A DNA stretch of 64,000 nt from an uncultured Gammaproteobacteria bacterium (GTDB lineage Bacteria; Patescibacteriota; Patescibacteriia; SBBC01; CAIJZX01), in assembly GCA_964349465.1 (NCBI GenBank), contig CAYGGC010000002.1, forward strand, positions 28,841-92,840, given 5' to 3'. A program made the position numbers and the translations under genes. Of the stretch, positions 6,273-40,262 are shown piece after piece; the first letter of the stretch is position 1, and the number at the start of each line of letters is the position of its first letter. The notes under the pieces were generated by a model. That model saw only the letters and a list, made by a program, of their open reading frames with translations, made no database searches and had not been told where the DNA came from.

Positions 6273-6276
6273 TGGA

Positions 6277-6885: not shown

Positions 6886-6893
6886 AGTCGTGG

Positions 6894-9935: not shown

Positions 9936-10337
9936 TTACCCGGCAGCATCAAGGGCGTGATTCACTAACGCATCCGCCGCGCTATTTTGTTCGCGAGGAA
10001 TGGCCGTGAACGTCACTCGGCCAATCTGGTTCACGAGTGACTGAATCCGAATAAACCACTGGGCTAAATCTTTATTTTTCATCTTGTATTCACCCCGGAG
10101 CTGCTTCACGACCAGTTCGCTATCGGCAAAGAGTTCCACCGACGTCGCACCTTGGGACTGGCACCACTGTAGCGCGGCATGAACCGCTTGATATTCGGCT
10201 TGGTTGTTCGTCGTTACACCAATCGTCTGATGAAGTTGATGAACCACGTTTCCGTCGGATTCAATTACCGCGCCAATCGCCGCTGGGCCTGGGTTACCGC
10301 GTGAACCGCCGTCAGTATGAACTTGAAACGTTTTCAT
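9936..10337 (-). CDS. rnhA: Ribonuclease HI
   Basis: MKTFQVHTDGGSRGNPGPAAIGAVI... followed by NNQAEYQAV...ELFADSELVVKQ, the RNase H type 1 core with its acidic residues. The ATG overlaps the recJ stop as ATGA. Confidence 0.75.
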   Translation of the reverse strand: MKTFQVHTDGGSRGNPGPAAIGAVIESDGNVVHQLHQTIGVTTNNQAEYQAVHAALQWCQSQGATSVELFADSELVVKQLRGEYKMKNKDLAQWFIRIQSLVNQIGRVTFTAIPREQNSAADALVNHALDAAG

Positions 10338-12924: not shown

Positions 12925-12925
12925 A

Positions 12926-14689: not shown

Positions 14690-14695
14690 GAGTAG

Positions 14696-15811: not shown

Positions 15812-16383
15812 GATTGGAGCACTTCTCCAGTTGTCGTTGCGCTGACGCCCAGCGCGTTTGCTTCATCCGTATCAAGATGTAATCGCCAAGAAAAATCAGG
15901 ATGGACGCGGACTAGTACATATTCAAGAACGCCGCCCCGTGGCCCATCAATGCGGACCGAAACTTCTTGACCTTCGTGAAGTCCAAAGGATTCACAATCT
16001 TTTGGGTGGGCGTGAATATGGCGACGCTGGAGAATCGCGGCCGGGACTTCGATCGAACCTTGTGGTCCGATGATAGTGACGGGCGCCGCGCCTTCAAGCT
16101 TTCCCGATTCAGACAAAGGTGGCGTTAAGCCAAGCTTGCGCGCATCGGTGGCTGCTAGCTCAACCTGGGTATACGTCCGGACCGGTCCAACGATTCCAAC
16201 GCGCCCCAACTCCCCTTTCGGTCCACGCAAGGTAACGCGTTCAGCAGCGAGGAATTGCGGGGGTTGAGAAATCGTCGCTCCAACCGTCATCGGTTGTTCT
16301 CCAAAAATTTTTTGCCAAGCGTCAGCCGACAGATGCACGTGACGAGCGGAAATTTCGATGGGTATATTAGACATAGTTTTCAA
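15808..16383 (-). CDS. pduL: Phosphate acyltransferase of the PduL type (PTA analogue)
   Basis: The duplicated PduL motifs are present: ISARHVHLS, then RRHIHAHP. The gene overlaps ackA by ATGA. Together the two form an acetyl-CoA to acetate ATP-yielding branch. Confidence 0.7.
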   Translation of the reverse strand: MKTMSNIPIEISARHVHLSADAWQKIFGEQPMTVGATISQPPQFLAAERVTLRGPKGELGRVGIVGPVRTYTQVELAATDARKLGLTPPLSESGKLEGAAPVTIIGPQGSIEVPAAILQRRHIHAHPKDCESFGLHEGQEVSVRIDGPRGGVLEYVLVRVHPDFSWRLHLDTDEANALGVSATTTGEVLQS

Positions 16384-17962
16384 AAATATTATGACCAGTC
16401 ATTTCGGGAGGAATCGGCAAACCGGCTAAGCCGAGTAACGTGGGCGCGACGTCGGCCAATACTCCAACCGGCGTTAACGATGAAAGATCGCGCATGGGCG
16501 CGCGAAAGCGTTCAACCAAAGATGCGGGCAGGTCGTCCGCGATAACAAATAATGGCACCGGGTTTGCGGAGTGTTCTTTTCCAACCGCGCCGGTCTGGCC
16601 ATCAATTTTATCTTCAGCGTTCCCGTGATCAGCCGTAATCATCACAAAACCATTCACCTCTAACGTTGCCTCAACAATTTGACCAATCAATGTGTCCACT
16701 GTTTCCACAGCTTTAATCGTCGCCGGAATGTTTCCAGTATGACCAATCATATCAGGGTTGGCAAAATTGACGACCATAAAGCTATAGGTACCGGTATTCA
16801 GTGCCGTGATCACTCGATCCGCCACCGCCCGCGCGCTCATCTCAGGTTTTTGATCATAGGATGCCAACGAAGGTGACGGCACCAAAATTCGTTCTTCACC
16901 AGGCCAGGCGCTTTCGACGCCACCGTTGAAAAAAAATGTGACGTGCGCATACTTCTCGGTTTCGGCGGCGTGCACCTGTTTTAAGCCAGCATCGCTAAAA
17001 ACTTTTGCTAATGGGGTAATGACTTTTTCAGGTGGAAAAGCGATCGTCACGGGTAAATCTTTTTCATATTCGGTCATCGTCACAAAAACCAAATTTTTCA
17101 GATACGCGCCCCGATCAAATTTCTCAAAACCAGGCAAGGTAAATGCTTTCGTTAATTCTCGGGCGCGATCGGAGCGATAATTAAAAAAGATGATGCTATC
17201 GCCGTCACCAACCGTACCAACTGGCTGCCCATCATGGACGATCACGGTCGGCACCATTTGTTCATCATACACACTCTTCGCGTAACTCGCCTCAATCGCC
17301 GCGATTGGGTCGGTCGCGGTTGGGCCGTCACCTTGAACCATCGCCGCATACACGGGAGCGATCCGATCCCAGTGATTATCACGATCCATAGCATAATATC
17401 GACCGCTAATCGTCGCGATCTCGCCGATACCAATCGTCACAATTTTTTTCTGTAATTTTGCGACCAGCGTCGCGCCGCTGTTGTACGGGCTATCGCGTCC
17501 ATCAAGAATAACGTGAATCACAACGCGCTTCACTTTAGACTTTTTACACAGTTCCAAAAGCGCGAATGCGTGTTCATCAAAACTATGTACCCCAGCCGCG
17601 CTAAACATACCGACGATGTGCAACGTGCTGGACGCGGTTTTCACATTCTCCAGCGCTTGCCCAAAGGCCGGATTCGTAAAAAACGACTTATCCATAATCG
17701 ACCGCGTAATCCGCGGCAAATCCTGGTAAATAACCTTACCCGCCCCAATCGTTAGGTGGCCAACTTCTGAGTTCCCCATTTCGCCCCATGGCAAACCAAC
17801 CGCATCCCCGGCCGCTTGCAACGTCATGGCCGGATATTGCTCAATGAGTCGATCGAGGACCGGCGTTTTCGCAAGAGCGATACAATTCCCCCGCGAGGGT
17901 GGTGCGACACCAAACCCATCGAGGATCAGTAATACCGCGGGATGACGTTTCGGCGTGGTCAT
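16367..17962 (-). CDS. gpmI: 2,3-bisphosphoglycerate-independent phosphoglycerate mutase (copy 1)
   Basis: LLILDGFG, MGNSEVGHLTIGAG and the C-terminal ITADHGN are all iPGM motifs. 531 aa. Confidence 0.85.
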   Translation of the reverse strand: MTTPKRHPAVLLILDGFGVAPPSRGNCIALAKTPVLDRLIEQYPAMTLQAAGDAVGLPWGEMGNSEVGHLTIGAGKVIYQDLPRITRSIMDKSFFTNPAFGQALENVKTASSTLHIVGMFSAAGVHSFDEHAFALLELCKKSKVKRVVIHVILDGRDSPYNSGATLVAKLQKKIVTIGIGEIATISGRYYAMDRDNHWDRIAPVYAAMVQGDGPTATDPIAAIEASYAKSVYDEQMVPTVIVHDGQPVGTVGDGDSIIFFNYRSDRARELTKAFTLPGFEKFDRGAYLKNLVFVTMTEYEKDLPVTIAFPPEKVITPLAKVFSDAGLKQVHAAETEKYAHVTFFFNGGVESAWPGEERILVPSPSLASYDQKPEMSARAVADRVITALNTGTYSFMVVNFANPDMIGHTGNIPATIKAVETVDTLIGQIVEATLEVNGFVMITADHGNAEDKIDGQTGAVGKEHSANPVPLFVIADDLPASLVERFRAPMRDLSSLTPVGVLADVAPTLLGLAGLPIPPEMTGHNIFENYV

Positions 17963-19503
17963 GCGAGCAAACTTTTTCCCGTCATATCAGCCGGTTGCGG
18001 CTGCCCCAGGATTGCCAAAACGGTCGGCGCGACATCGGCTAATCGACCGCCAGATCGGAGAGTCCGGGCCTTCACTGCTGGTCCCACGAGCCACAGCGGC
18101 ACCGGATTGGCCGAATGCTCAGTATCAACCTCACCGGTTTTGAGATTTTTCATCTCTTCCAAATTCCCATGATCACCAGTGACAACAAGCACGCCGTTGA
18201 CTGCCGTGACCGCCGCAGCGATACGCCCAAGCGCGGCATCGGTTGCCTCCATCGCCTGAATTCCAGCGGCTAAGTTGCCAGTATGAGCCACCATATCGGT
18301 ATTCGCAAAATTCATGACGATGACATCAAATTCTTTTTTTTCGATGGCGCCACACACCCGGTCGGTCAAGGCCACCGTACTCATGGCCGGAAGTTGGTCA
18401 TAGTATTTGACTGGCGGGGATGGAATCATTTCACGGTGTTCTCCGCCAACCGGATCCGGGTACCCACCGTTGAAGAAATACGTCACATGGGCGTACTTTT
18501 CGCTTTCGGCGATGTAGAGCTGTCGATGATTCCGTAACACCATCGGCAACGTATCGTTGATAGTCAAGGCTGGGAAGGCGCTCAGGAGGTCCCCTAAATC
18601 TGGACCAAAATCAGTCATCGTCACGAACAGCAGATCACGAATAACCCGAGATCGATGAAAAGCTTTCGTGGCCGCATTGGCCGTCTCAAAGTCCGGTTGA
18701 ACAAAGGCTTTCGAAATTTGACGGGCTCGGTCCGACCGAAGATTGAAAAAAATAATCGCGTCACCGTCATGCATCCCATCGTACCCATCAACAATTGTGG
18801 GCTTAATAAATTCATCGCTTTCGCCTCGGTTATACGCTTGCCCTACTGCGGCTAACGCATCATCGGCTTGGTGCTCCCCGCGACCTTGGGTAATGGCGTC
18901 GTACGCAAGCTGGGTTCGCTCCCATGTTTTATTCCGATCCATTCCGTAAAAACGACCCATCAATGTCGCGACGTGCGCATCACCAAAAAACGGAACCATC
19001 TTCGTTAACATTTCCCGCGCAAAAAATCGCGGTGAGTCGCGTCCATCGGTGAATAAATGCAGTTTCACGTCTTGGATTTTGTGATTTTGGACAAACATCA
19101 ATAGCGCCAATAAGTGATCTGGATCAGCATGAGCGCTTTCGTTGCTCCCAAGCATCCCCATAATATGCAGCCGCGACTGATGTTTACGAACGTGACGCAG
19201 CACCGCGAGAAAAGCTGGGTTCCGAAAAAAGGTACCGTTATTGATGGCGTTAGAAATTCGGACGCTTTCTTGCGGCACAACTCGACCGGCACCCAAGTTC
19301 ATGTGGCCAGCTTCCGAGTTTCCATCTTGCCCCGGATTTAATCCAACCTCAACACCGCTGGCGTAAAGCTCGGTCATCGGCCATTGGCCACGCCAGCTAT
19401 CGAGGACAGGCGTCTTCGCTTGAGTAATGGCGTTAGCGGGACTCGGCGGGGCAATTCCCCAGCCATCAAGCACCGCCAATACAACCGGACCAGGCTGGCT
19501 CAT
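17959..19503 (-). CDS. gpmI: 2,3-bisphosphoglycerate-independent phosphoglycerate mutase (copy 2, paralogue)
   Basis: VLAVLDGWG, GNSEAGHMNLGAG and VTGDHGN. 514 aa. The two copies have diverged but both look full-length. Confidence 0.85.
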   Translation of the reverse strand: MSQPGPVVLAVLDGWGIAPPSPANAITQAKTPVLDSWRGQWPMTELYASGVEVGLNPGQDGNSEAGHMNLGAGRVVPQESVRISNAINNGTFFRNPAFLAVLRHVRKHQSRLHIMGMLGSNESAHADPDHLLALLMFVQNHKIQDVKLHLFTDGRDSPRFFAREMLTKMVPFFGDAHVATLMGRFYGMDRNKTWERTQLAYDAITQGRGEHQADDALAAVGQAYNRGESDEFIKPTIVDGYDGMHDGDAIIFFNLRSDRARQISKAFVQPDFETANAATKAFHRSRVIRDLLFVTMTDFGPDLGDLLSAFPALTINDTLPMVLRNHRQLYIAESEKYAHVTYFFNGGYPDPVGGEHREMIPSPPVKYYDQLPAMSTVALTDRVCGAIEKKEFDVIVMNFANTDMVAHTGNLAAGIQAMEATDAALGRIAAAVTAVNGVLVVTGDHGNLEEMKNLKTGEVDTEHSANPVPLWLVGPAVKARTLRSGGRLADVAPTVLAILGQPQPADMTGKSLLA

Positions 19504-24930: not shown

Positions 24931-25356
24931 TTACTCCGAAAACGTGCTTTGATGTAAGACCTCTTCAACCTGCTGCTGCAAGTCGTGTGGGTCGAGGTTT
25001 GACTTCACCAAATACCGATCGGCCCCGAGTTTTTTCGCGGTCCGAACATGCTCATCCGAATCAAGGTTAGAAAGAATAATGACTCGCGTCATTGATAACG
25101 ACGGCGTATTTTTTACCAGCCGAAGAATCTCAAAACCCGTGGGCTCGTGATAATTCTCGCCATGGGTGTCACCCTTCGGATGCTTTGGGATCAGGAGGTC
25201 CAAGAGGACCACGTGCGGGCGGTTAACAATGATTTGCTCCTCCCCTGTTTGCGCATCAAGCGCGGCGTTCACTTCGTAACCTGACTTTGTTAACATCAGG
25301 GTATAGAGCGAGGAAATAATTGGTTCGTCTTCGATCAGCAAGATGCGAGTGGCCAT
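24931..25356 (-). CDS. Single-domain response regulator (CheY-like receiver only)
   Basis: MATRILLIEDEPIIS...VLLDLLIP... with the conserved Asp pocket and a lysine (LVKSNLD). There is no output domain. The start is 13 nt after the stop of the kinase gene. Confidence 0.7.
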   Translation of the reverse strand: MATRILLIEDEPIISSLYTLMLTKSGYEVNAALDAQTGEEQIIVNRPHVVLLDLLIPKHPKGDTHGENYHEPTGFEILRLVKNTPSLSMTRVIILSNLDSDEHVRTAKKLGADRYLVKSNLDPHDLQQQVEEVLHQSTFSE

Positions 25357-25369
25357 AGACGTAGGGTAA

Positions 25370-28192
25370 TTATGAACGAGGGCTAACCACGTGCGCAGCC
25401 GCTTGATGCGGATGTGCCTCGGGCGCGTCAGCATGCGGGACCAAGGGTAGAATAAATTGGAAGGTACTCCCCTTTCCTTCACCATCCGACTCGGCCCAAA
25501 TCCGCCCGCCGTGGGCGTCGATAATGGATTTCGCAATAAATAAACCAAGTCCCGATCCATCAGGATGGATTTGGGCGATCCCGCTCCCGCGCACAAACTT
25601 GTTAAACAACTCCGTCGCGTCCTGCGGCTTAATACCAATACCGGTGTCTTTCGCGCGGAAATGAATACGCTCGTCTTCCAGTTCGGCCGTGAGGGTGATT
25701 GAACCTTTATCGGTATATTTGATGGCGTTATCGATCAAATTAAGAATGACATCTTGAATTTTATCGGCGTCAACCATAACTTTCGGCAAGGGTGTTTTTG
25801 GAAGCTTATTGAGAATTTTCAAACCCTTATCGTTCGCCGCTTTCGTTACTTCCTTAATTTCACGCACCACTAAATCTTCAAACTGGACTGGCACTTTTGT
25901 ATATGTGAACTTGCCCGCCTCGATTTTTGAGACGTTTAAGAACTGGTTAATTAAGCGAATCATCCGCTGTGATTCAGCTAATAAATCGGTCAGAATTTTC
26001 AGGTGATCGGGTTTCATCTTCCCGAAATCTCCCTGGGTCATCATCGACAGATAGCCCATAATCCCGGTCATTGGCGTTCGGAGTTGATGGGACGCGATCG
26101 ACACAAATTCTGACTTCGCACGGTCGAGTTCTTGAAGATGCTTGTTCGCAACTTCGAGCTGTCCGTTCGTTTCCTTCAATTGCGAGAAAAGCGTTAAGTT
26201 CCGCGACACAATCCCGAGTTCGTCGGCCATCGATTGCATCGTCGCGATTTCTTGTGGGGTGATGTCGTGGATAGATTTTTGCAAACCGATCTCAATCACC
26301 CCGATGGTCCTTGATTCCGAAATGATCGGTACTAAAACCATCGATTTCAGGCCCATCAGTTTTTGGATACTCGCACATATAATTTTCGGCAGCGGCGGCG
26401 AGAGAACGTCGCTCATCGAGTCCGTGATTTTTATTTCTCCAGTGCGAATAACCTGATGCCCTAAAGAGTTAGAGGCCGGATCCATGATATCGCTGTGGTA
26501 CGTATCAAACCGCAACGGCAATAATCGCATCGCCTTCTTAGTCAGCGGTGTTTCGGTAATTGCGCGCGCCCGAACCGTCCGACCATCTTGGTCGAGGAAG
26601 ACTAGAATCGCGCCCAGATAGCCAAGCTCAGTTGCGACGCTATTGGCGATATTTTGGACGGCTTGGGAGAAATCGAGTGTTCGCGTGACTTCTTTGGTAA
26701 TATTTTGCAGGGTTTGCAACGAGACATTCCGATCTTCGAGCTTCTCGGTCGCTTCCTTTACTTTCACTTTCAAATTTTCACCAAACTCCCGAACTTCTTC
26801 GAAGAGGTTCGCCTTTTGAATCGCTGATCCAATTTGTGGCGACAGCACTTCAATCAAGTTCACGTCATCGTTGGAGAACGTATCCCCAGAGAGTTTAGAC
26901 CCGAGGACAAGTACGGCAATCAAGTGATCTTGCGCGTAGACCGGCGCAATTAAGGCCGCTCCAAGCTTTTCAAATTCTTCTTTCGACGCAAGCAACGGTC
27001 CGCGTAGCTCTTCTTTCGTATCGTCAATTTTCCGCTCAAGCGATTCATAAATGGCCGGATGACGGTGCTCGCGGAGATAATGCACGAGCTGACTCTCGTT
27101 TTGGAGCACCATGTTTGGGTATTTGCCCAAAAGTTCCGGCAAGGCCTCAAACCGATCCGTGCCGCCATGCGAAGTTCGGCGCAGGAGCGTCGCCGCAAAC
27201 TTGATTTTGAGCTCTTGGGTTAGGGTCGTCCGCAGATCGGTAATCAGTTTTGTCTGATCAAGTTCGAAACTGAGGGTTTCGGAAAGTTTGCGGAGAATCG
27301 CTTGATAATCAATCTTTGCCTTGAAAAAGACTTTGTCGGTTGCTCGTGAAAGAAGCCGCTTGAGTGGATCAAGGCCGAAGACGATGAGAGCGGCGACGAG
27401 GAAGGCTATTGAATTTTGACTAACTTGGCTCTTTTCAAAGAAACGCGCGGAGGTAAACGTAATAAAAACGAAAGAGAGTGTGACGAGGGTCAACAGCAAA
27501 CCATAGATTAATGAACGTGTGGCGACTAGACGGATATCTAGTAGCCTATGCCTTACAATTGCGTAACTAACTAATACAACGAGAAAAAGTGTGCCGAGCG
27601 GTCCAAGGGCAACCAGACTACCGATCCCGATTACCGGCAGTAAAATATTAGTAATAATGCCAAAAAGAGCGGTAATTGCGACTCCAGCAAAAACGTACCT
27701 TATCTGTTGCTTAACTAACCCCGAGGAGCTTAAATATTTTCTAATAAAACTGTAAATCGAAAAAATTATTCCTCCAAAGAAATATAGTAAGAAAAAATAG
27801 TACCCTGGCGCATAAGTTAACTTTGCAGGAAAGATTGTGTTATCTACAGATTCAACAAGGTATCCAAAAAAAATAGTTGGCAACAAAACAATAAATCCCA
27901 CTAAAAAAAATACCAATACTGGTTTTCTTGGGTTAACACCAAACGGGAAGAGATAGCTAAAAAAAAGTATAGATGGAATCATTAGTACCGGTCCAAGAAA
28001 AGTCATTTTTGCCCAAAAAAGCGACCTATTCGGATCAAAGTCAACCAAATAGTTAGCAATTGCCCAAATTGCCAAGGATATCGCGAGGGAGAAAAAAGAA
28101 ATATTTATTTTGGATTTGTGATTTCTGTTTAGAATTAAGAATCCTAAAAAAATAATTGAAGCCGAGACAAAAAGAACTGACAATAGGTACAT
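25370..28192 (-). CDS. Sensor histidine kinase with 7TM, GAF, GAF, HisKA and HATPase domains
   Basis: About 220 aa of multi-pass membrane domain, then two GAF-like regions, an H-box (FVSIASHQLRTPMTGIMGY), an N-box (LNLIDNAIKYT) and G-boxes (DTGIGI, GSGLGL). 940 aa. The 5' roughly 500 nt are strongly AT-rich. Confidence 0.8.
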   Translation of the reverse strand: MYLLSVLFVSASIIFLGFLILNRNHKSKINISFFSLAISLAIWAIANYLVDFDPNRSLFWAKMTFLGPVLMIPSILFFSYLFPFGVNPRKPVLVFFLVGFIVLLPTIFFGYLVESVDNTIFPAKLTYAPGYYFFLLYFFGGIIFSIYSFIRKYLSSSGLVKQQIRYVFAGVAITALFGIITNILLPVIGIGSLVALGPLGTLFLVVLVSYAIVRHRLLDIRLVATRSLIYGLLLTLVTLSFVFITFTSARFFEKSQVSQNSIAFLVAALIVFGLDPLKRLLSRATDKVFFKAKIDYQAILRKLSETLSFELDQTKLITDLRTTLTQELKIKFAATLLRRTSHGGTDRFEALPELLGKYPNMVLQNESQLVHYLREHRHPAIYESLERKIDDTKEELRGPLLASKEEFEKLGAALIAPVYAQDHLIAVLVLGSKLSGDTFSNDDVNLIEVLSPQIGSAIQKANLFEEVREFGENLKVKVKEATEKLEDRNVSLQTLQNITKEVTRTLDFSQAVQNIANSVATELGYLGAILVFLDQDGRTVRARAITETPLTKKAMRLLPLRFDTYHSDIMDPASNSLGHQVIRTGEIKITDSMSDVLSPPLPKIICASIQKLMGLKSMVLVPIISESRTIGVIEIGLQKSIHDITPQEIATMQSMADELGIVSRNLTLFSQLKETNGQLEVANKHLQELDRAKSEFVSIASHQLRTPMTGIMGYLSMMTQGDFGKMKPDHLKILTDLLAESQRMIRLINQFLNVSKIEAGKFTYTKVPVQFEDLVVREIKEVTKAANDKGLKILNKLPKTPLPKVMVDADKIQDVILNLIDNAIKYTDKGSITLTAELEDERIHFRAKDTGIGIKPQDATELFNKFVRGSGIAQIHPDGSGLGLFIAKSIIDAHGGRIWAESDGEGKGSTFQFILPLVPHADAPEAHPHQAAAHVVSPRS

Positions 28193-28197
28193 GTAAA

Positions 28198-28503
28198 TTA
28201 TAGTCTGTTAAAAATACGAAAGATGCCAATTATAACGAGTACCAAAAAAATTAAATATACATATGACGGCAGTTTTTTTGCAAAAAAGAAAACATAGATA
28301 TACGGCACTAGGAATACTATGAGAGTTAATCCAGCTCGTACAATAATCTCAAAAGTCGAGACCTTCAGTGCTACCCCCACAACTAGCCAAGCCATTAGAG
28401 CATAGAAAACGGGCCAGGTTCCAAAGTATAGAATTCCAAAAATTCTGCCATCTAGACCATATTTATTGATTTGCTGATTTTTTTTTCGCAAAAAGTCTAA
28501 CAT
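28198..28503 (-). CDS. Small membrane protein, 101 aa, 3 TM helices
   Basis: Hydrophobic ORF lying 2 nt downstream of the acyltransferase stop and 6 nt upstream of the kinase start. About 33% GC. Confidence 0.5.
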   Translation of the reverse strand: MLDFLRKKNQQINKYGLDGRIFGILYFGTWPVFYALMAWLVVGVALKVSTFEIIVRAGLTLIVFLVPYIYVFFFAKKLPSYVYLIFLVLVIIGIFRIFNRL

Positions 28504-28505
28504 GA

Positions 28506-29213
28506 TTAATGCAAAGAATACCTATAATCTTTCCCATGAGGAGAAAGGGAGCCATTAGATAAAAATTTTAATAGTGATCTATTTTTTTCGTACATCTTTT
28601 CTTCAAACTCATTAACATGGATTACATAAGGAGCTGTAATGCCTTGAAATATTTTGGATTTCCCAATGCGTGTAATTGGGATATTAAACTCTTCGAGGTT
28701 CGGTGTTAGCTTATCATCTAAGACGCAGAAAATATTGTTTAAGTGTCTTTCTTTTACCAGCAAATAAATGCCCTTAATTAATACTAGAAGTAGGTGTTTT
28801 CTTCGATAATTTCTTGCGACTATTAATCTAGAAATTTCTGCGACCTGATTTACATCAACTGGTTGAAGACGATAATCAATTTCGAAATTTCTGAGTATGG
28901 GCAATCCATCATCTGAACCGAGAATAAGCCTAGCTGTTGCAGCGAGATCTCCTGAATTATGTCTTACTACAAGATGAATGGAGTGACGATCAAAAATATC
29001 TTGTTCTCTTTTATTTGGGTAATCTCTGTAGTCTAAGTATCTATATTCTTCACAGTAAACTTTGTAACGAATTCTATAAATTTCTTCTAACTCGTCATGC
29101 TCTGAAGTTGTGTAGAAAGTAAAATTTTTATAGACACTTCTTTCTGCTAATCTTAAATTTATCCCCCCAAAGAAAGGACTCTTTACCAATGCTTTCAAAA
29201 AAATGGAGGGCAT
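28506..29213 (-). CDS. GNAT-fold N-acyltransferase of the autoinducer-synthase/N-acyl-amino-acid-synthase/OlsB superfamily
   Basis: RIRYKVYCEEYRYLDYRDYPNKREQDIFDRHSIHLVV matches the LuxI/FeeM block R..VF..E..W.....E.D.FD..S.HLVV. ATARLILGSDDGLPI...AEISRLIV matches the E.SRL.V block. The start at 29213 overlaps the upstream stop as TAATG. Confidence 0.6.
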   Translation of the reverse strand: MPSIFLKALVKSPFFGGINLRLAERSVYKNFTFYTTSEHDELEEIYRIRYKVYCEEYRYLDYRDYPNKREQDIFDRHSIHLVVRHNSGDLAATARLILGSDDGLPILRNFEIDYRLQPVDVNQVAEISRLIVARNYRRKHLLLVLIKGIYLLVKERHLNNIFCVLDDKLTPNLEEFNIPITRIGKSKIFQGITAPYVIHVNEFEEKMYEKNRSLLKFLSNGSLSPHGKDYRYSLH

Positions 29214-29890
29214 TATTTTTTCAAAACAATATAAGTTGTAGTGGCAAACCAAATCACTGAACTAAGAACGCCATAAAGGAAATTTGGAACAAAGTCGGGG
29301 GAAAAAATAGGCCAAATCAGATCGATAAATACCGCGGGCAATCCACCGATGATCACAGACAAAAGGACTAAAAAAACATTTTTGCCGTTTAACCCATCGT
29401 TTCTTTTTGATTGCTTGAATAGCAGTCCTACTGCTAATAAGTAGAGAGAGAGTAAAAGCACATTGTAAAAAGGGAGTAGAGGTCCTGCGACTACCCTCCC
29501 TACGTTTGTTGTAGAGGCAACATAATCCAACTCTATAGTTCGTGTTGTAAGAGCGATTATTGAAAATAGTGCTGCGGGCAAATACATCAATGTTCTATGA
29601 AGTCTATCCAAATGAACTAGCGGAAGTGGAAATACAATGGCCAAATGGACTAGTGACGTAAGTAAAAAAATTCCAAAAACATACACAAAGGAATTGATTA
29701 TGAGAGATGCTTCTAGGCTGTAGGCCAACAAGCCGCTGAAAATCACCCACAACCCCGTACTCAAAGCCAACAACGCCATCACCTTCCGAATTTCACTCTT
29801 CGAGTGCGTCACCCAAAAGAAAATTGCGAGGATTAACTCCCCAATCCCAACAAGGTAGGTGGCTGTAAGTAAAAAGGTTTTCATTTCCAT
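29213..29890 (-). CDS. Stand-alone 7TM membrane protein, paralogue P1 of the kinase sensor domain
   Basis: 225 aa with seven predicted TM helices. It shares MK...ATYLxGxGE..L..FFW.T, FPLP, GGLP and a terminal YIVLKK with P2 and P3. Confidence 0.6.
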   Translation of the reverse strand: MEMKTFLLTATYLVGIGELILAIFFWVTHSKSEIRKVMALLALSTGLWVIFSGLLAYSLEASLIINSFVYVFGIFLLTSLVHLAIVFPLPLVHLDRLHRTLMYLPAALFSIIALTTRTIELDYVASTTNVGRVVAGPLLPFYNVLLLSLYLLAVGLLFKQSKRNDGLNGKNVFLVLLSVIIGGLPAVFIDLIWPIFSPDFVPNFLYGVLSSVIWFATTTYIVLKK

Positions 29891-29891
29891 A

Positions 29892-30566
29892 TTATTTCTT
29901 CAACACAATATAGGAAGTTACGCCAAGCCATACAAGTGTCGCTGAGGTGCCGTACAGAGGATCTTTAGCATACCCCGTAAACAAAGGAATGATCAGGTCA
30001 TTAATGACTCCCGGAAGACCCCCTAGGACAAAGGACAAAGCCACTGGCAGAAGGGTGTGACGATATGTGACATCAGCTTTTCTCAATCGGTATAACAATA
30101 TTCCAATAGCCAGTGTATACAGTGCGATAAGGTATATATTGTAATACTGGAAGAGCGGACCGCCGTGCCAGGCGCCCTGAAATGTTGAGGAGGAAACGTA
30201 ATAATTGAGGACAGTATTCGTTCCAAAAATCTCGAAAGAAAAAATAATGGCCGGGATAAAGAGCAGAAAAATATGAAAGCGATCTATACGAATTATTGGT
30301 AATGGAAAAAGGAGAGAAAAAAGCAAAACGGCGGTTACCATGAAAACTCCAAAGGCGTATGTCAGTCGAGGTAATAGGTTTTGCGCCGTAGCATTTTCAG
30401 TATACGCAGCGCCAACGGTTGAGAGTACCCATGCGCCTGTTACGATCGCAAGGAAACCAAGTATCTTTCGAATAATTTGGTTTCCATTCGTTTTCCAAAA
30501 AAACAATCCGAGGAGAACTTCTCCTAGTCCAATCAGATACGTTGCAATGATTGCGAGTTCTTTCAT
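29892..30566 (-). CDS. Stand-alone 7TM membrane protein, paralogue P2
   Basis: Start MKELAIIATYLIGLGE. It ends SYIVLKK. Its ATG overlaps the P3 stop as ATGA. Confidence 0.6.
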   Translation of the reverse strand: MKELAIIATYLIGLGEVLLGLFFWKTNGNQIIRKILGFLAIVTGAWVLSTVGAAYTENATAQNLLPRLTYAFGVFMVTAVLLFSLLFPLPIIRIDRFHIFLLFIPAIIFSFEIFGTNTVLNYYVSSSTFQGAWHGGPLFQYYNIYLIALYTLAIGILLYRLRKADVTYRHTLLPVALSFVLGGLPGVINDLIIPLFTGYAKDPLYGTSATLVWLGVTSYIVLKK

Positions 30567-31222
30567 TTCTTCACCAAAATATATCCGGTCAAGCACAGCC
30601 AAACCGAGGTAAACAACGATCCAATAAAACCGTATTTCGTGGCCGCATTCAACGGCAAGGCGATATCAAACACCGCCGAAACCACAAGCGAGACCACGAT
30701 ACCGATCGTCACCAGCTGGGTATTTCGACGATGCAACCCGTCGGCCCGCCGCCAGGCGCGCACCAAGTTCACCAACGACCACAGCCAATACAGCCCGAAA
30801 ACGACGATCAGGAGCCAGAACAACTCGCCGGTTGCTGTCGCGTACCCAGGGCCGAAGGCAACAATACTTGAACGAGCGACAAAAATATCGGTCAGCAGGA
30901 GCCCTGGAATGAAGATCGCCGCTGGCCACAGTACCCAGGGAACGAGCTCATGATTTCCCCTCGTCGGTAGAGGGAAGGAAAAGCTAAAGGGTAAGAACAG
31001 CACCGCAGTCATCAATCCCCCGGTCCAAGCCAAGTGCTCGGCGGTGTCGCCACTGATCCACTGTCCAAGATACCCAAGCCCGTTCGCCCCCACATATAGG
31101 GCAACCGCGAAGCAAAACAAGCCATACCACATGGTCGCCTGGTTTTTCTGGTATTTCGTTAGGAACCAAAAGCCCAGCCAAACTTCAGCCAGGGCGATCA
31201 CGATTAACAGCCAGCCAATCAT
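30563..31222 (-). CDS. Stand-alone 7TM membrane protein, paralogue P3 (GC-normal copy)
   Basis: 219 aa. Contains FSFPLP and ends GYILVKK. Its GC is about 55%, unlike P1, P2 and the acyltransferase. Confidence 0.6.
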   Translation of the reverse strand: MIGWLLIVIALAEVWLGFWFLTKYQKNQATMWYGLFCFAVALYVGANGLGYLGQWISGDTAEHLAWTGGLMTAVLFLPFSFSFPLPTRGNHELVPWVLWPAAIFIPGLLLTDIFVARSSIVAFGPGYATATGELFWLLIVVFGLYWLWSLVNLVRAWRRADGLHRRNTQLVTIGIVVSLVVSAVFDIALPLNAATKYGFIGSLFTSVWLCLTGYILVKK

Positions 31223-31422
31223 AGGCTCTGACAGAAAACAAACCCACGGCCAGTGGATTGGGTTTTTTTGCTACCCTGATAAATTGTCGATTTCCCGCGA
31301 GAAAATTCCGTCACGGTGGATGTATAAAAAGTCCACCGCTACTATAGCAGATTTGGTCTAAATGCGCAACTTGATAGCCCTTGTGCTATCAGCCTCGAAA
31401 ATTGCTCCAAGAATTTCCTCTG

Positions 31423-32802: not shown

Positions 32803-32849
32803 TATTGAAAAAATTACCGGGTACAAGAGTATAGTACCCTTGTACCCGG
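32803..32849 (-). terminator. Intrinsic terminator 3' of the CHAP lipoprotein gene
   Basis: On the minus strand, CCGGGTACAAG-ggtactatact-CTTGTACCCGG is an 11-bp stem followed by TAATTTTTTC. Confidence 0.55.
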
Positions 32850-32863
32850 CGACTGTGAAGGCG

Positions 32864-33649
32864 TCAGTATCCGAGGTTCAAAGCCCTGTAATTCGCCAGG
32901 TTGCCCACTCCGGACCCGGACGTCACGGCGATGACATGCATCCCGATTTCCTCGTCGCCGATGAAGTTCGAGTCGACGACAACCACCTTCCGAACCGAGG
33001 ACCCGGCGGCACCTTCCACGATACCGACTACGATGGCCGTGTGGCCGTTGACCGTATTCGTTTCGATGACGTCACCGACACGAATCTGGTAGTACGGTCT
33101 GGCCGAGCCGCCGTAGGCCGGAAGCTTACTATTCCGAACACCCGCGCGGTACAGGATCAGTGCCGCAAAACTCCGGCACTGCCCGCCGTGGGAACGAACC
33201 GTGCCGGTGTTCTGTCCGGAGCGATTCAAGCTCGTCCATGAGTAGACGTCCATGTTCGAGTAATAGCTCGGCCACCCGGTCCAGAGGGAAGCGTTAACCC
33301 CGTACCAGTCATTGCCCTTGATGACATTGTGAGCATTCGGGTCGCTCAGTAGATACGCCCAGTTACTGCGCTGGACCGTTCCATCCGCCGACAACTGCCA
33401 GTACATATAGCCCCAGTTCTGACGGAGCGCGTAGTAGCACTCGTACTGAATGGCGATACGGTTGTCGGGATGCAGTCGACTCGGCTCCACGCCCGGCTTC
33501 CCGATCCGGCCCGACATCGTGTCGGCCGGCGAAATGGTCTGCTCAGTCGTGATCGACGGCTGCACGGGGTTATCCTTCCCGCAGCTCGTCAGCGTCATCG
33601 GCACCAGTGCCAGCGCAAGCGCCAGCCCCACCACCAGAAACTTCTTCAT
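32864..33649 (-). CDS. Lipoprotein with a C-terminal CHAP-like (Cys/His amidase/peptidase) domain, CHAP-1
   Basis: The start at 33649 (MKKFLVVGLALALALVPMTLTSC, lipobox LTSC) has AGGAAG 8 nt upstream. The catalytic-looking region is GGQCRSFAALILYRAG...GDVIE...GHTAIVVG. Confidence 0.6.
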   Translation of the reverse strand: MKKFLVVGLALALALVPMTLTSCGKDNPVQPSITTEQTISPADTMSGRIGKPGVEPSRLHPDNRIAIQYECYYALRQNWGYMYWQLSADGTVQRSNWAYLLSDPNAHNVIKGNDWYGVNASLWTGWPSYYSNMDVYSWTSLNRSGQNTGTVRSHGGQCRSFAALILYRAGVRNSKLPAYGGSARPYYQIRVGDVIETNTVNGHTAIVVGIVEGAAGSSVRKVVVVDSNFIGDEEIGMHVIAVTSGSGVGNLANYRALNLGY

Positions 33650-34068
33650 TGCACACTTCCTGTTCTGCTCCATGACGGAGCTAGAGGGTTTGGTCGCTGA
33701 GGATCACCTCCTCAGGTGTTCTTGATGAGCTACCGTGAAACGGGCGACGAACTGCCGTTCTGGATCACCTCCCTTCCCTCGCACCAGTTGTTGAATTTGA
33801 GTGCTGAGGTTTTTGAATTGTAATGTGCGTCACGAACCATGATGGTCTTTTTTTGGCGTACACAAAGCACGACTATCAACGCCCACTTTCTGCGTTGAGC
33901 CGTCAGTCCTCACCAAGCATGGTGATATGCCACAGCACCAACTACTCACGAGTGGTGCTGGGCAAGCAAAAACCAGCGGCCCAACTCTCGACACTTTGTC
34001 AGGTTAACAACGTATGAACGTTGTCAGCCCGAGCGAAGTCGAGGGCCAAGCCACTGGTTCGTATGTTC

Positions 34069-36894: not shown

Positions 36895-37374
36895 TCACTG
36901 ATGACTGCCGTGTTCGTACACTACCCACCGAAAAGAAAGATGCCCACCGAGAAGTCCGATCAAAGGTGCAACAAGAGAAATTATTCCCAGTTGAAAACTT
37001 TTTGCATGCTGTATATATTTTGCTGAGTTTCCAGTAGTCATCATGACGAGCGGCGGGTTGAAAATTAATATGGCACTTGAAGTAAGGGCGAATAGTATGG
37101 CAATTGTGTATATTTTCAACTTCATTTTTGGATGACCGCTTGAGAGAAGACCCGCGAGTATTGCAACGAGAATCATAGTTGCACACACTGACAGGTAGCG
37201 TAAATAGAATTCACCGTTGGCTGAAGAAAGTTTTGTATGTGCGCAAACACTTTCAATAGAAGGTGTTTTACTATCGCAATAGACAGCTCCTTGGCGAATA
37301 AATCCCGGGGAAAAGTATGTAATAAATCCCAGCAGGATCAGAAGGCCAAATAAATGTTTTCTTGGTGTGGTCAT
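36895..37374 (-). CDS. Multi-pass membrane protein (hypothetical)
   Basis: Hydrophobic ORF starting MTTPRKHLFGLLILLGFI in an AT-rich region. An overlapping ORF in another frame (36641..37186) was rejected. Confidence 0.4.
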   Translation of the reverse strand: MTTPRKHLFGLLILLGFITYFSPGFIRQGAVYCDSKTPSIESVCAHTKLSSANGEFYLRYLSVCATMILVAILAGLLSSGHPKMKLKIYTIAILFALTSSAILIFNPPLVMMTTGNSAKYIQHAKSFQLGIISLVAPLIGLLGGHLSFRWVVYEHGSHQ

Positions 37375-37445
37375 AGAGTATATTGACATACTATCAGACG
37401 TTCACGCTTGATCCTGTCAAACAAGTGCGTCTGAAATCGAAACGA

Positions 37446-37841
37446 CTACGCTACAAGATTGCAAATGATAAATGGGAAATCAGGTTCCCAAACTTGAACT
37501 ACTGTAAAGGAAATGCCTGCAACGATAATTACTATCAGAAGTATCAGTCGTAAATATTTTGGCAAAGGCTTTCGCAAGCCACTTGCCCAGACCAGGAGAG
37601 AAATAAGAATCAGTAAAAAAGTACTAGACACAAACACGCTCATAAAATTTGCCAGGCCTGGCGCAGTAATGGTTTTGCAGATCTTTTGAATAGCTACCGG
37701 ATCGCCATTTGTCACTGCAAGACTTTGTTGAATTTCTGGGTGTTGTTGTGCATACCCATCGTATGAAAATGCTGAAAGCAATAGCCCCAGCGTGCTCATT
37801 GTGAGTATTGGGAGAACAATAGCATGAAGTTTTTTTATCAT
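37446..37841 (-). CDS. Membrane protein (hypothetical), 131 aa
   Basis: An N-terminal signal/anchor and two further TM segments. AT-rich. Confidence 0.45.
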   Translation of the reverse strand: MIKKLHAIVLPILTMSTLGLLLSAFSYDGYAQQHPEIQQSLAVTNGDPVAIQKICKTITAPGLANFMSVFVSSTFLLILISLLVWASGLRKPLPKYLRLILLIVIIVAGISFTVVQVWEPDFPFIICNLVA

Positions 37842-37866
37842 ATGATTAACATGTAGTATAGCAGAA

Positions 37867-37897
37867 AAAGTCTGGAGGAAACGACTAGCATAGTCGT
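37867..37897 (-). terminator. Intrinsic terminator 3' of the secreted-protein gene
   Basis: On the minus strand, GGAGGAAACGACTA-TGC-TAGTCGTTTCCTCC is a 14-bp stem followed by AGACTTTTTCT. Confidence 0.55.
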
Positions 37898-37908
37898 TTC
37901 CTCCATTA

Positions 37909-38424
37909 CTAGTAGGAGTACGTCGTCCAGAGCCAGAAGTACCGTGAAAATTCCCAGTCCGTCAGATAGCCGTACTGAATGCGCAGAGTCTTCGGGATAA
38001 TCAACCGGCAGTCATCCCACCCGTTACCAAGATTCGTGCGGGCCAGAATCCAGTTGTTCAGACCGCCTTCGCAACAGGACGTCGGGATGCCTGCGGACCG
38101 AGTAATCCCGTAGGTGGAATGGGGGATCCGGAACACGATCGTGAAATGCGGCCCCTTCCAGTCCCACTGCCAGTCAGTCCGATAGGCCTGGTAGCCCGTG
38201 TTCTGAACCGCACTCATCTCCGCTCCCGGCCGTACGATCGCGCGACCAGTCTCACTCGAGATGGTCTGAGTCGGAACCGTCTCCGCGGGGGTAGGCACCG
38301 GCTGTGCAAACCTCGTCTTGAGCGCGCCCCAGGTCGTCTTCGTGACGGTCGGTTCCTGCGCGAACGACGGGAACGTGAACAACGTGGCGACAAGCAAAAC
38401 AAGCAACGTGACCAGCCGCTTCAT
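37909..38424 (-). CDS. Secreted protein, 171 aa
   Basis: Signal peptide MKRLVTLLVLLVATLFTFPSFAQE. AAAGGAG lies 5 nt upstream of the ATG. The N-terminal block TTWGALKTRFAQP resembles one in CHAP-2. Confidence 0.5.
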   Translation of the reverse strand: MKRLVTLLVLLVATLFTFPSFAQEPTVTKTTWGALKTRFAQPVPTPAETVPTQTISSETGRAIVRPGAEMSAVQNTGYQAYRTDWQWDWKGPHFTIVFRIPHSTYGITRSAGIPTSCCEGGLNNWILARTNLGNGWDDCRLIIPKTLRIQYGYLTDWEFSRYFWLWTTYSY

Positions 38425-38631: not shown

Positions 38632-39057
38632 GATCTTCATTTGCGCTTTGACCTAAAGAGCTTATCGTTTACGAAAACTATGTTCAAGATACTCCTTGGG
38701 CTATGTCCAAGTTATATCCAAACCATGAAAACCATCCAAAAAAACCAAAAAGCAAAGATGCTAGCTTGAATGAATTTTCCCGCTTCTCTTTTTACCAATG
38801 TACTACGCACGATGATAGCGACGGTTATGAGGCTCACCATGATCAACAAAAGATCTGTCAAAAGCCCTAAGGAATTTCGTTAATATGAGGACCGTCCGAT
38901 CAAGATAAAAATATTCTCGGCCAAAATCGTTCCGCCAATCGAAATACTTAATACTAATGAAACGAGACGGCCGACTAGTGTCAACATATTATTAACACGG
39001 ATGTTTTTAAAAATTTTCACATTATTCGACCATTGTTGATTACTCATAGTTTATTTC

Positions 39058-39402
39058 TTACTTGATCTCTTCAATATTCAATAATTGGATGACAATTCCC
39101 CAATCGCCCCCAATAACATCTTGGATTTGATACTCAATCACAACGCGCTGACCATCATGCTGCCGAGCGCTTGGGAGATCGGCAAAACGAAATTTTTGCT
39201 TCAATGGATGTGCTAGGCTACGATCGGTTTGAAACCCCCATGCTGGGACAGAGTTGACCGTAATAACCTGGATGCGACCAATAGCCTTGTGGGTCACGGC
39301 GCCTGATTGTAGCGACTGGGTGTAGGCAACGATTGCAAAAACGCCGTAGAGTATTATTAGGCCAACCGTGGTAACAAGAATATATAGGTATCGTTTTGTC
39401 AT
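39058..39402 (-). CDS. Small membrane-anchored protein, 114 aa
   Basis: N-terminal TM helix (YLYILVTTVGLIILYGVFAIVAY). No recognised domain. Confidence 0.45.
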   Translation of the reverse strand: MTKRYLYILVTTVGLIILYGVFAIVAYTQSLQSGAVTHKAIGRIQVITVNSVPAWGFQTDRSLAHPLKQKFRFADLPSARQHDGQRVVIEYQIQDVIGGDWGIVIQLLNIEEIK

Positions 39403-39412
39403 GGGTAGATTT

Positions 39413-39718
39413 TTACATCAGGTTTCCCGAAAACCCCAGGAGTAAGATCCAAACAATTGGAAACAGCACAAATAACGCCCATCCCAGGATCATTCCTAGC
39501 CCAAAGTTTCGGTTTTTCTTCCGTAACCAAATCGCAACTGCGAGTAGCGTGATACAAAAAATCCATTGCAAAAGAAAACTTGTAGCTGGTGAAGGCTCAA
39601 CAGTTACCATCAATATAAACCCGATCGCGCCGAGCAATGGAATAAGCAAGACACCGCGGTAAAAGTTTCGTTCTTTTAGGATGTGAGCTGGCTGGTGTGT
39701 CGGTACGCCATTGATCAT
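39413..39718 (-). CDS. Small membrane protein (2-3 TM helices)
   Basis: Hydrophobic. The start is uncertain (39718 or 39757). Confidence 0.4.
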   Translation of the reverse strand: MINGVPTHQPAHILKERNFYRGVLLIPLLGAIGFILMVTVEPSPATSFLLQWIFCITLLAVAIWLRKKNRNFGLGMILGWALFVLFPIVWILLLGFSGNLM

Positions 39719-39734
39719 TGGTTCGGAACCAAAA

Positions 39735-40262
39735 TTAATTATTACTTTTTTGTGCAATACAGTTCGTGATAAAAAATGTTCGGGGAATGCCTTTCATGTC
39801 AGGAGCATTCTCGTTGAATTGCCGGAGATGGGTAATTTTTAAGGAAGACAGATTCTCTTGCAATGCTTCAGCTGTATATCGTGAAATCAACGGACGCTCG
39901 AATGACGGTTCTGGGTCTTGAAAAAAAGTTTGAAGAGCGAATATTCCGTGTGGATCAAGGTGTTGAAGAGCAGTGGGAAAGAAACTCTTTTTCACCCATT
40001 CGCCAGAAAGAAATTGGATGAGATTTCGAGAAAAAATAATGTCGTAGCTTTCCTGCGTCGGCCAATTTGCAACGAACGAAACTACATCTTGCTTGATCCA
40101 TCGTAGACCGGAAAGTTCCTGCGGCGCATCTTTCAGATCAACAGCTGTCACGACCGCGCCACGTTCCACCGCTTGGCGCGCAAACCAACCATTTCCAGCC
40201 CCAAGATCGAGGACGCGGCTACCTGGTTGGACGTAGTGCAATGTTGTTTCAGCGAAGGTCAT
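39735..40262 (-). CDS. Class I SAM-dependent methyltransferase, small-molecule/RNA type
   Basis: Motif I is VLDLGAGNGWFARQAV. Length 175 aa. There are no DNA-MTase motifs. Confidence 0.6.
   Translation of the reverse strand: MTFAETTLHYVQPGSRVLDLGAGNGWFARQAVERGAVVTAVDLKDAPQELSGLRWIKQDVVSFVANWPTQESYDIIFSRNLIQFLSGEWVKKSFFPTALQHLDPHGIFALQTFFQDPEPSFERPLISRYTAEALQENLSSLKITHLRQFNENAPDMKGIPRTFFITNCIAQKSNN

Follow-up and report, generated by a model that had tools for sequence, protein, structure and literature searches.

What does an autoinducer-synthase-like acyltransferase produce when its gene is surrounded by genes for seven-transmembrane (7TM) proteins, a histidine kinase and a receiver protein, and is its product sensed by that kinase? 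This question is raised by a GNAT acyltransferase gene (GNAT below) located on the minus strand of a 64,000-nucleotide stretch of contig CAYGGC010000002.1 (assembly GCA_964349465.1), the whole of which we call the window. The initial annotation recognised the enzyme type and left three products open: a signal related to N-acyl-homoserine lactones (AHL), an N-acyl amino acid, or a lyso-ornithine lipid made by an OlsB-type acyltransferase. Comparison with family profiles separates these three, and an N-acyl amino acid is clearly favoured. For the locus as a whole we propose a polymorphic N-acyl-amino-acid signal/receptor circuit, a reading to which we assign a rough probability of 0.5.

The GNAT open reading frame (ORF) begins with an ATG at 29213 and ends with a stop at 28506. 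A TTG at 29252 could serve as an alternative upstream start, but this is unlikely because the ATG overlaps the stop codon of the preceding gene, 7TM-c, in a TAATG junction. The identical protein in public assemblies was called in the same 235-aa frame. Both motif blocks of autoinducer-synthase-like GNATs are present verbatim (...RIRYKVYCEE...EQDIFDRHSIHLVV... and AEISRLIV). An alignment with 28 relatives, which takes in named PEP-CTERM-type members, has R49, V52, Y53, E56, E70, D72, D75, R95, P105, E126, S128, R129, L130, L145 and G191 invariant. The recognition of an autoinducer-synthase-like GNAT is therefore upheld: the conserved Arg, Glu, Asp and Ser positions are in place, and the best matches described below lie outside unrelated GNAT families. 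The low GC content noticed earlier was also confirmed by measurement, at 33.3% (26.7% at third codon positions, GC3) against 51.6% for the window.

The host is a bacterium of the Patescibacteria (candidate phyla radiation, CPR) close to Candidatus Kerfeldbacteria. The closest genome match (70% identity) belongs to a Ca. Kerfeldbacteria metagenome-assembled genome (MAG), and other close matches come from Parcubacteria or Patescibacteria MAGs, including one single contig of 1.03 Mb. Members of the clade are rare: out of 1.84 billion cluster representatives just 9 match at E<=1e-30, and 21 proteins among 5.8 billion have at least 37% identity. Three public contigs that carry an identical GNAT are 100% identical to the window, their differences in gene length being due to start calls only.

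The assignment of GNAT to a product class rests on profile scores. GNAT passes the NCBIfam model TIGR03694, the 'PEP-CTERM/exosortase system-associated acyltransferase' model of NasY-type enzymes, with 126.8 bits (curated cutoff 111.95, E 8.9e-37), and so do all full-length Patescibacteria relatives tested (125-167 bits). The match is split in two stretches, the better one covering model positions 6-126 of 241, and there is no contiguous full-length match. This is explained by the absence from the clade of a 30-50-residue insertion, which Gram-negative members carry after the EISRL block in the same alignment; the insertion is a typical rather than a strictly defining feature of TIGR03694. PF13444 (Acetyltransf_5) is matched above cutoff with 52.2 bits and PF21926 (FeeM) with 41.5 bits against a cutoff of 27, over profile positions 1-121 of 158. 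The profiles of the two other candidate classes behave differently. PF00765 gives no match to GNAT at E<=1, and the NCBIfam AHL-synthase (TraI-type) models do not match it either, while the relatives reach at most 22 bits against cutoffs of 250-292. With the two OlsB equivalog models GNAT reaches 25.8 and 22.4 bits, where the cutoffs are 350 and 320. No OlsA/PlsC-type O-acyltransferase gene was found in the operon, in the neighbourhoods of relatives or among the approximately 40 window ORFs that were scanned for families, and the OlsB reading was rejected.

An AlphaFold model of GNAT (pLDDT 85.2, pTM 0.82) has the LuxI-like three-layer GNAT fold, to which GNAT adds its own N-terminal helices and C-terminal hairpin, as the alignment also indicates. 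The best structure matches in the PDB are BjaI (E ~5e-10, query-normalised TM-score (TMq) 0.62-0.63), FeeM, RpaI and TofI, and LasI, MesI and EsaI match as well. In a PDB profile search, the coenzyme A-dependent BjaI (2e-11), RpaI and MesI rank above TofI, LasI and EsaI, which depend on acyl carrier protein (ACP). FeeM (PDB 2G0B), an acyl-ACP-dependent N-acyl tyrosine synthase, aligns with the model at E 2.6e-8 and TMq 0.55, with a root-mean-square deviation (rmsd) of ~5 Å, 13-14% identity and conservation of the catalytic Glu position; unlike the AHL synthases, it is absent from the sequence-profile matches at E<=1. A single-sequence search of the PDB returned only matches with E>0.1, so there is no close solved relative. 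Glu126, in the E-x-S-R block, aligns with the corresponding block of BjaI, and its equivalent is essential in Nas354 and has been proposed as the catalytic residue in FeeM.

By fold, AHL synthases and N-acyl amino acid synthases cannot be told apart. The family profile does distinguish them and places GNAT in the second group. On these profiles, GNAT is probably a TIGR03694/NasY/OxzA-type synthase of N-acyl amino acids, a new member of this family in an unusual host. GNAT agrees with the NasY-type synthases linked to PEP-CTERM/exosortase (Craig, Cherry & Brady 2011, J Bacteriol 193:5707) in both motif blocks, the invariant residues, the LuxI/FeeM fold and the passed model cutoff. It differs from the Gram-negative members in sequence (24-31% identity), in the missing insertion, in its terminal extensions and in its Patescibacteria host. 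Exosortase/PEP-CTERM-related families were found neither among the scanned window ORFs nor in the neighbourhoods of relatives, and GNAT is wired to a 7TM kinase, which none of the Gram-negative loci compared has. The earlier statement that the substrate class cannot be assigned thus no longer holds for the class, for which an N-acyl amino acid is favoured and an AHL disfavoured by sequence profiles; it does hold for the exact amino acid and acyl chain.

The same evidence makes it unlikely that GNAT is a true LuxI-type AHL synthase that uses S-adenosylmethionine (SAM) and works with the adjacent kinase as a quorum-sensing pair. AHLs are indeed sensed by some membrane kinases such as LuxN, the fold and the best solved relatives are those of AHL synthases, all charged residues of the LuxI signature are conserved, and some relatives carry precomputed PF00765 matches. 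However, proven N-acyl amino acid synthases of the TIGR03694 family have these conserved residues too, and the LuxI Trp (W34/35, in the N-terminal SAM-side pocket) is replaced by Tyr59, which is nearly invariant in the clade. No LuxR-type gene is present in the operon. Moreover, most sister loci encode a ThiF-family protein (see below); ThiF acts on a free carboxylate, which an AHL does not have.

A published survey (Bernard et al. 2020, PMC7567580) lists CPR homologs of LuxI, those of Kerfeldbacteria among them, finds 18 next to a putative sensory kinase, reads them as AHL synthases and remarks that Phe or Tyr stands in place of Trp35. GNAT has the fold, the charged residues, the adjacent kinase and the Trp35 substitution in common with these homologs, and since the adjacency of LuxI homolog and kinase is tabulated there, this core observation is not new. 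In contrast to the LuxI-type reading, the profile scores place GNAT in TIGR03694 and not in the AHL families. The supplementary files of that survey contain neither 'ThiF' nor '7TM' and its LuxI passages mention neither standalone 7TM proteins nor sensor hypervariability; to that extent the family assignment and the anatomy of the system are not in it.

The placement of GNAT inside a sensing operon, also proposed from the initial annotation, was borne out by the gene layout. From 7TM-a to the REC-only regulator, all genes run in one direction at spacings of -4 to +13 nt, and they include a HisKA/HATPase_c kinase and a receiver protein (Table 1). Three 7TM-only proteins are followed by GNAT, a small membrane protein, a 940-aa kinase with the architecture 7TM-GAF-GAF-HisKA-HATPase_c and the REC-only protein, whose gene is convergent with that for aspartyl-tRNA synthetase and was called with the same length in the identical public contigs.

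Table 1. Features of the GNAT operon in the window, in the direction of transcription.
Feature	Coordinates	Strand	Length	GC	Description
Gap upstream of 7TM-a	31223..31422	-	200 nt		Likely operon leader/promoter region
7TM-a	30563..31222	-	219 aa	54%	HisKA_7TM-type module only; first operon gene; PF16927 33.8 bits
7TM-b	29892..30566	-	224 aa	43%	HisKA_7TM-only; PF16927 30.4 bits
7TM-c	29213..29890	-	225 aa	40%	HisKA_7TM-only; PF16927 35.4 bits
GNAT acyltransferase gene	28506..29213	-	235 aa	33.3%	LuxI/FeeM fold; TIGR03694 member
Slot gene	28198..28503	-	101 aa	34%	Orphan protein; 3-4 predicted transmembrane (TM) helices
Kinase, sensor part	27503..28192	-	residues 1-230		Hypervariable 7TM module; PF16927 49.7 bits
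Kinase, cytoplasmic part	25370..27502	-			Two GAF domains; HisKA 61.8 bits; HATPase_c 89.7 bits; conserved chassis
REC-only regulator	24931..25356	-	141 aa		No output domain; PF00072 52.4 bits; last operon gene

HisKA_7TM is a catalogued sensor domain to which, to our knowledge, no ligand has been assigned. The 7TM-a protein aligns over its full length with the other three 7TM modules and is 45-56% identical in close relatives; 7TM-b has 39% identity to 7TM-c, and its gene overlaps 7TM-a by 4 nt. A structure model of 7TM-c has seven helices (pLDDT 77.6) and finds generic bundles resembling G-protein-coupled receptors (GPCR) only, at an rmsd of 6-7 Å, so no functional inference was drawn from it. 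All three standalone proteins end in a common ...Y-I-[VL]-[LV]-K-K tail, and by sequence they look as if they were kinase sensors cut at the 7TM/cytoplasmic junction. The kinase carries a matching motif, SYAIVRHR, exactly at this junction. A PrsK-type kinase was considered and dropped: the N-terminal part of the kinase matches only a weak 'LIC10906 family' model, and PrsK was not reported. In the leader region, Rfam gave no family at E<=1, and no riboswitch or other known RNA was detected in the operon or its leader. Promoter and terminator scans within the operon were not above chance, nor was the promoter scan of the leader.

The order of the operon is conserved in relatives down to 36-43% GNAT identity: two to four standalone 7TM proteins, GNAT, one variable position (the slot), a 7TM-GAF kinase and a REC-only protein. 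Downstream, Pyr_redox_2, PGK, enolase and iPGM genes are common to several of these loci and the window. The slot is most often occupied by a ThiF-family protein of ~250 aa, alone in nine loci, together with a ~155-aa membrane protein (o154) in four, and with both o154 and a SAM methyltransferase in L010. A TM-fused methyltransferase without ThiF takes this place in L017/L108 and a 574-aa protein of no known family in L099 (7659-9383), whereas the slot is empty in the Saccharibacteria locus L082 and holds the 101-aa orphan in the window. ThiF is thus present in sister loci L004, L007, L009-L016, L018, L102, L103, L106 and L110, and it follows GNAT in the other Patescibacteria loci with readable flanks except L017/L108, L099 and L082. 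No ThiF is encoded anywhere in the window (tblastn best E 1.8).

The 101-aa protein belongs to no Pfam or NCBIfam family and finds only itself among 5.8 billion proteins. A metagenome scan gave no further locus with this protein or with the sensor type of the window. Its ORF was also considered as a remnant of ThiF, of the o154 family, of a methyltransferase or of a 7TM module, and was rejected as such for lack of similarity. In L099, the standalone 7TM proteins (4167-6940) are longer than elsewhere, 456-465 aa, and consist of the 7TM module and an unassigned C-terminal half.

The pairing of GNAT with ThiF has clear precedents. OxzA, TyzA and TrzA are enzymes of the LuxI/FeeM fold that N-acylate Tyr, Phe or Trp from acyl-CoA; the ThiF homologs OxzB, TyzB and TrzS adenylate the carboxylate of the product with ATP and cyclise it to an oxazolone, which a nitroreductase-type oxidase desaturates. 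Stieleriacine clusters consist of NasY, a methyltransferase, ThiF and a nitroreductase, and a producer without ThiF and nitroreductase makes only saturated N-acyl tyrosines. Sister Patescibacteria loci have in common with OxzAB (P. rubra), TyzABC, TrzAS (M. tuberculosis) and the stieleriacine clusters an acyltransferase followed by ThiF and sometimes a methyltransferase. They differ from these pathways in that neither the operon nor the Pfam listings for Patescibacteria relatives contain a nitroreductase/FDO, and the window differs further by the lack of ThiF; the characterised clusters, for their part, have not been described with a dedicated receptor kinase. GNAT plus ThiF is thus an old module in which the product of the acyltransferase must carry a free carboxylate, which fits an N-acyl amino acid and not a homoserine lactone. 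As ThiF was lost in the lineage of the window, the end product there is predicted to be an uncyclised N-acyl amino acid; in the other Patescibacteria, with no nitroreductase listed, any ring would be the saturated and more labile form of the oxazolone. Aromatic residues dominate as acceptors among the characterised family members. The acyl donor is perhaps acyl-CoA rather than acyl-ACP, a weak preference based on the CoA dependence of the nearest solved relatives, the use of acyl-CoA by homologs and the short-chain acyl-CoA metabolism encoded in the window.

Of the characterised ThiF-like enzymes, most have a protein, a peptide or tRNA as substrate, and this brings up a different role for GNAT: acylation of a protein or peptide, such as the 7TM proteins or a small unannotated peptide, with the ThiF of relatives activating a peptide C-terminus in the manner of MccB. 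The translational coupling of the GNAT start to a 7TM gene and the conserved C-terminal ...YIVLKK tail of the three standalone 7TM proteins could be understood in this way. We nevertheless regard such a role as very improbable: free amino acids are the substrates of all characterised family members, the gaps between the operon genes (<=13 nt) hold no ThiS/MoaD-like or precursor-peptide ORF, and the ThiF of relatives aligns over its full length with the standalone ThiF type found beside TIGR03694 genes.

This association of ThiF with TIGR03694 extends beyond CPR. Of 70 non-CPR loci, 20 have a ThiF gene flanking the TIGR03694 gene, at a distance within 300 bp in 11 of them; examples among loci L026-L088 are L059:10772-12733, L083:10697-12805 and L070:10653-11525. 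Fusions of ThiF with a nitroreductase, the architecture of OxzB, were seen only in the Gram-negative loci L058, L059 and L083. In L059 and L083 the TIGR03694 members are 70 bp away from such fusions; the Gram-negative members beside these fusions score 172-226 bits with TIGR03694. Many 'PEP-CTERM-associated' acyltransferases may in reality be enzymes of oxazolone pathways.

Among the loci compared, 7TM modules accompany GNAT in Patescibacteria only. Other signalling genes are found near TIGR03694 genes elsewhere: a histidine-kinase core is encoded within 2 kb in 18 of 71 non-CPR loci, the neighbours in Geobacter/Desulfuromonas include GAF-HisKA-GAF-HD proteins (L070:7490-9733, L026:11645-13912), and in three non-CPR loci small soluble histidine kinases start 3-25 bp downstream (L019:10681-11700, L020:1625-2674, L041:6218-7288). 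These neighbours lend support to the idea that the enzyme family is connected with signal transduction more generally.

The most variable part of the system is the sensor of the kinase. In L004 and L010, the closest relatives with REC, identity to the window is 64-67% for GNAT, 62-66% for the middle part of the kinase, 73-77% for its core and 66-73% for REC, compared to 33-35% for the 7TM sensor. With L011 and L016 included, the middle part is 60-66% and the core 68-77% identical to the window, and the window sensor has 26-34% identity to the sensors of 17 other loci. Over all locus pairs, sensor identity ranges from 18 to 61% (28-48% in the first eight loci); in the same kinases, identity is 46-78% over the cytoplasmic part and 56-81% over the core by itself. 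L017 and L009 have cytoplasmic kinase parts 77-81% identical, with only 33% identity in the sensor and 41% in GNAT; in sliding windows, their identity stays at 13-42% as far as about residue 200 and reaches 71-100% from residue 220 onwards. The same step is seen when the window kinase is compared with those of L004, L011 and L010.

This breakpoint coincides with a change in base composition. GC content of the kinase gene is 34-37% over the first 600 nt, then 43% and then ~52% (300-nt windows), and it rises at the point where identity does. The sensor-coding 5' end thus belongs to a GC trough that also covers 7TM-b, 7TM-c, GNAT and the slot gene (Table 1). Relatives have the same trough, with GNAT and ThiF at 29-38% GC in loci of 45-52% GC. 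Recent horizontal import was considered as the cause of the low GC and rejected, as the trough is present in all relatives examined and the downstream synteny is conserved; the trough is a long-standing property of the cassette and not a sign of recent import. Within a conserved chassis, slot and sensor together make up a hypervariable block of low GC. The kinase of L016 groups with that of the window and its closest relatives (60-70%), whereas its GNAT groups with that of L017 (50%); these incongruent trees suggest that lineages have exchanged parts.

Sensor identity tracks slot content. In the eight loci with complete kinases it is uncorrelated with the identity of either the cytoplasmic kinase part (r=0.05) or GNAT (r=-0.17), and correlates with a shared slot content (r=0.78, partial r=0.82, permutation p=0.018, which is the permutation floor for eight loci). 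Over 18 loci, pairs with the same slot content have a mean sensor identity of 39.7%, compared to 27.8% for pairs with different slots, and none of 20,000 label permutations reaches this difference. L015 is an outlier within its slot class.

We propose the following mechanism for the locus. GNAT would acylate a free amino acid at its alpha-amino group from an acyl thioester, using Glu126 (AEISRL) as the general base, the enzyme chemistry being deduced from the characterised homologs, and the product would be an amphiphilic N-acyl amino acid. In most sister lineages the downstream ThiF may adenylate the product carboxylate and cyclise it to an oxazolone-type derivative, and some lineages may add a methyltransferase and/or a small membrane protein. 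In the lineage of the window, ThiF would have been replaced by the orphan 101-aa membrane protein, and the end product would keep its free carboxylate. Detection of the product, in or at the membrane, would presumably fall to the GPCR-like 7TM module of the co-transcribed histidine kinase (7TM-GAF-GAF), possibly with some role for the standalone 7TM proteins, and the kinase would phosphorylate the REC-only regulator. Slot and sensor may behave as one exchangeable AT-rich block in an otherwise vertically inherited operon, and exchange of this block could give rise to lineage-specific signal/receptor pairs comparable to the agr and comQXP pherotypes.

Several points weigh against such a circuit. 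The two GAF domains of the kinase offer an alternative ligand site, and since GAF signalling proteins also occur beside TIGR03694 genes in Geobacter and Desulfuromonas, the ligand may be bound by GAF and not by the 7TM module. The slot adjoins the sensor-coding 5' end of the kinase gene, so co-inheritance in one recombining block could yield the observed association without functional coupling; the class of loci with the same slot consists mostly of ThiF-only loci, the other classes being small or singletons; and GNAT does not co-vary with the sensor. The conserved residues of GNAT are common to true AHL synthases, and sequence by itself leaves room for SAM as the acceptor. Finally, CPR bacteria are generally regarded as unable to make fatty acids. 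Together with the absence of ACP, Fab and FadD genes among the scanned window ORFs, this leaves a long-chain donor unexplained.

Toxin/immunity loci, too, typically have cassettes that are hypervariable and odd in composition. The product could accordingly be an antagonistic surfactant or antibiotic, with the 7TM and 101-aa proteins serving export or self-immunity, the kinase sensing damage or the variants of competitors, and an arms race driving the hypervariability. N-acyl tyrosines are indeed biosurfactants with antibiotic activity, and stieleriacines alter biofilm composition. Several small membrane proteins of no assigned function surround the synthase and differ between lineages, and the rare, patchy occurrence of the family (the 9 cluster representatives given above) is typical of accessory competition loci. 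Yet the operon encodes no transporter of the ABC, MFS or RND families, and its wiring to a two-component system is stable across deep divergence. What varies is, specifically, the kinase's sensor domain, and the breakpoint falls on the domain boundary; this suits ligand recognition better than immunity. We consider an antagonistic function unlikely, if somewhat less so than AHL synthesis.

Sensor hypervariability also bears on a role in membrane composition, in which GNAT would catalyse the first step towards a structural aminolipid (OlsB- or GlsB-like) from scavenged fatty acids and the kinase would monitor the state of the membrane. CPR bacteria depend on scavenged lipids, every neighbour of GNAT is an integral membrane protein, and GNAT matches PF13444, a Pfam family associated with OlsB in the initial annotation, and, weakly, the OlsB models. 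Such variability is unexpected in a general membrane-state sensor, however, and a clade this rare is an ill fit for a core membrane function. Tailoring by ThiF and methyltransferase suits secondary metabolites. With the OlsB scores far below their cutoffs and no O-acyltransferase partner, an aminolipid is improbable.

The proposed N-acyl-amino-acid circuit can be compared with agr (agrB-D-C) and comQXP. In these systems a hypervariable block comprises the signal-maturation gene(s) and the membrane sensor of the kinase, and the kinase core and the regulator are conserved. The operon described here is similar in its variable slot and sensor, conserved kinase core and breakpoint at the sensor/cytoplasmic junction. 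It differs in that the predicted signal is a small acylated amino acid and not a ribosomal peptide, that the core synthase is outside the variable block, and that variation is found between distant lineages and not between strains, the three strain-level contigs being 100% identical. We tentatively speculate that the N-acyl amino acid or, in sister lineages, its ThiF-cyclised or methylated derivative is a signal for pherotype-like small-lipid communication of CPR bacteria, with the kinase 7TM module as the cognate receptor, and that the lineage of the window has changed both; this further step is doubtful.

Many bacteria, M. tuberculosis among them, make N-acyl amino acids and acyl-oxazolones, and the physiological role of these compounds has been called unclear in the papers that characterised them. 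No receptor for either was found in the searchable literature. A synthase, tailoring genes and a membrane kinase in one conserved operon are a candidate producer/receptor pair, and the natural sensor variants offer a set for working out ligand specificity. Nor did the searchable literature contain a description of an N-acyl amino acid/oxazolone module wired to a 7TM kinase with an exchangeable block; at the level of the system, a biosynthetic module hard-wired to a 7TM kinase, combined with an exchangeable tailoring/sensor block, appears to be new. Should the pherotype reading be true, the N-acyl amino acid/oxazolone class would have its first dedicated receptor in bacteria, the view in the literature that these CPR genes encode AHL synthases would be corrected, and ultra-small, host-dependent bacteria would carry lineage-specific chemical signalling. 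If the slot-sensor association reflects linkage only, what remains is an ordinary new TIGR03694 member in an unusual host.

The window is an ordinary piece of chromosome of a fermentative small-genome bacterium, with genes for glycolysis, pyruvate:ferredoxin oxidoreductase, a PduL-type phosphotransacylase, acetate kinase, RecJ, DnaX, BipA, a Mur ligase and a penicillin-binding protein. The two subunits of pyruvate:ferredoxin oxidoreductase, acetate kinase and the PduL-type phosphotransacylase are encoded in a row at 12055-16383, ~12 kb from GNAT, and this short-chain acyl-CoA metabolism is a possible source of the acyl donor. Next to it are tandem overlapping paralogs of cofactor-independent phosphoglycerate mutase (16367-17962 and 17959-19503), a duplication also present in L009.

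Three of the loci, L012, L016 and L018, come from third-party annotation (TPA) MAGs labelled 'uncultured Gammaproteobacteria', and they carry the Patescibacteria operon and the same downstream synteny. Their kinase cores are 65-73% identical, and the labels are probably wrong.

The AT-rich operon region is bordered by a 269-aa ORF with no Pfam family and 60% GC (GC3 78%) at 32816-33673. It is conserved in the Kerfeldbacteria locus L011 and is followed by a terminator-like hairpin with a 16-bp stem (32850-32816). Further low-GC patches (41-42.5%) at 37001-38000 and 39001-40262 contain ORFs without a Pfam family; a 175-aa SAM methyltransferase is encoded at 39735-40262. An 839-aa protein with VirD4/TrwB-type coupling-protein domains (T4SS-DNA_transf, TrwB_AAD_bind) is encoded at 48905-51424, and a 180-aa RNase H / RVT_3-like protein at 9936-10478 adjoins recJ.

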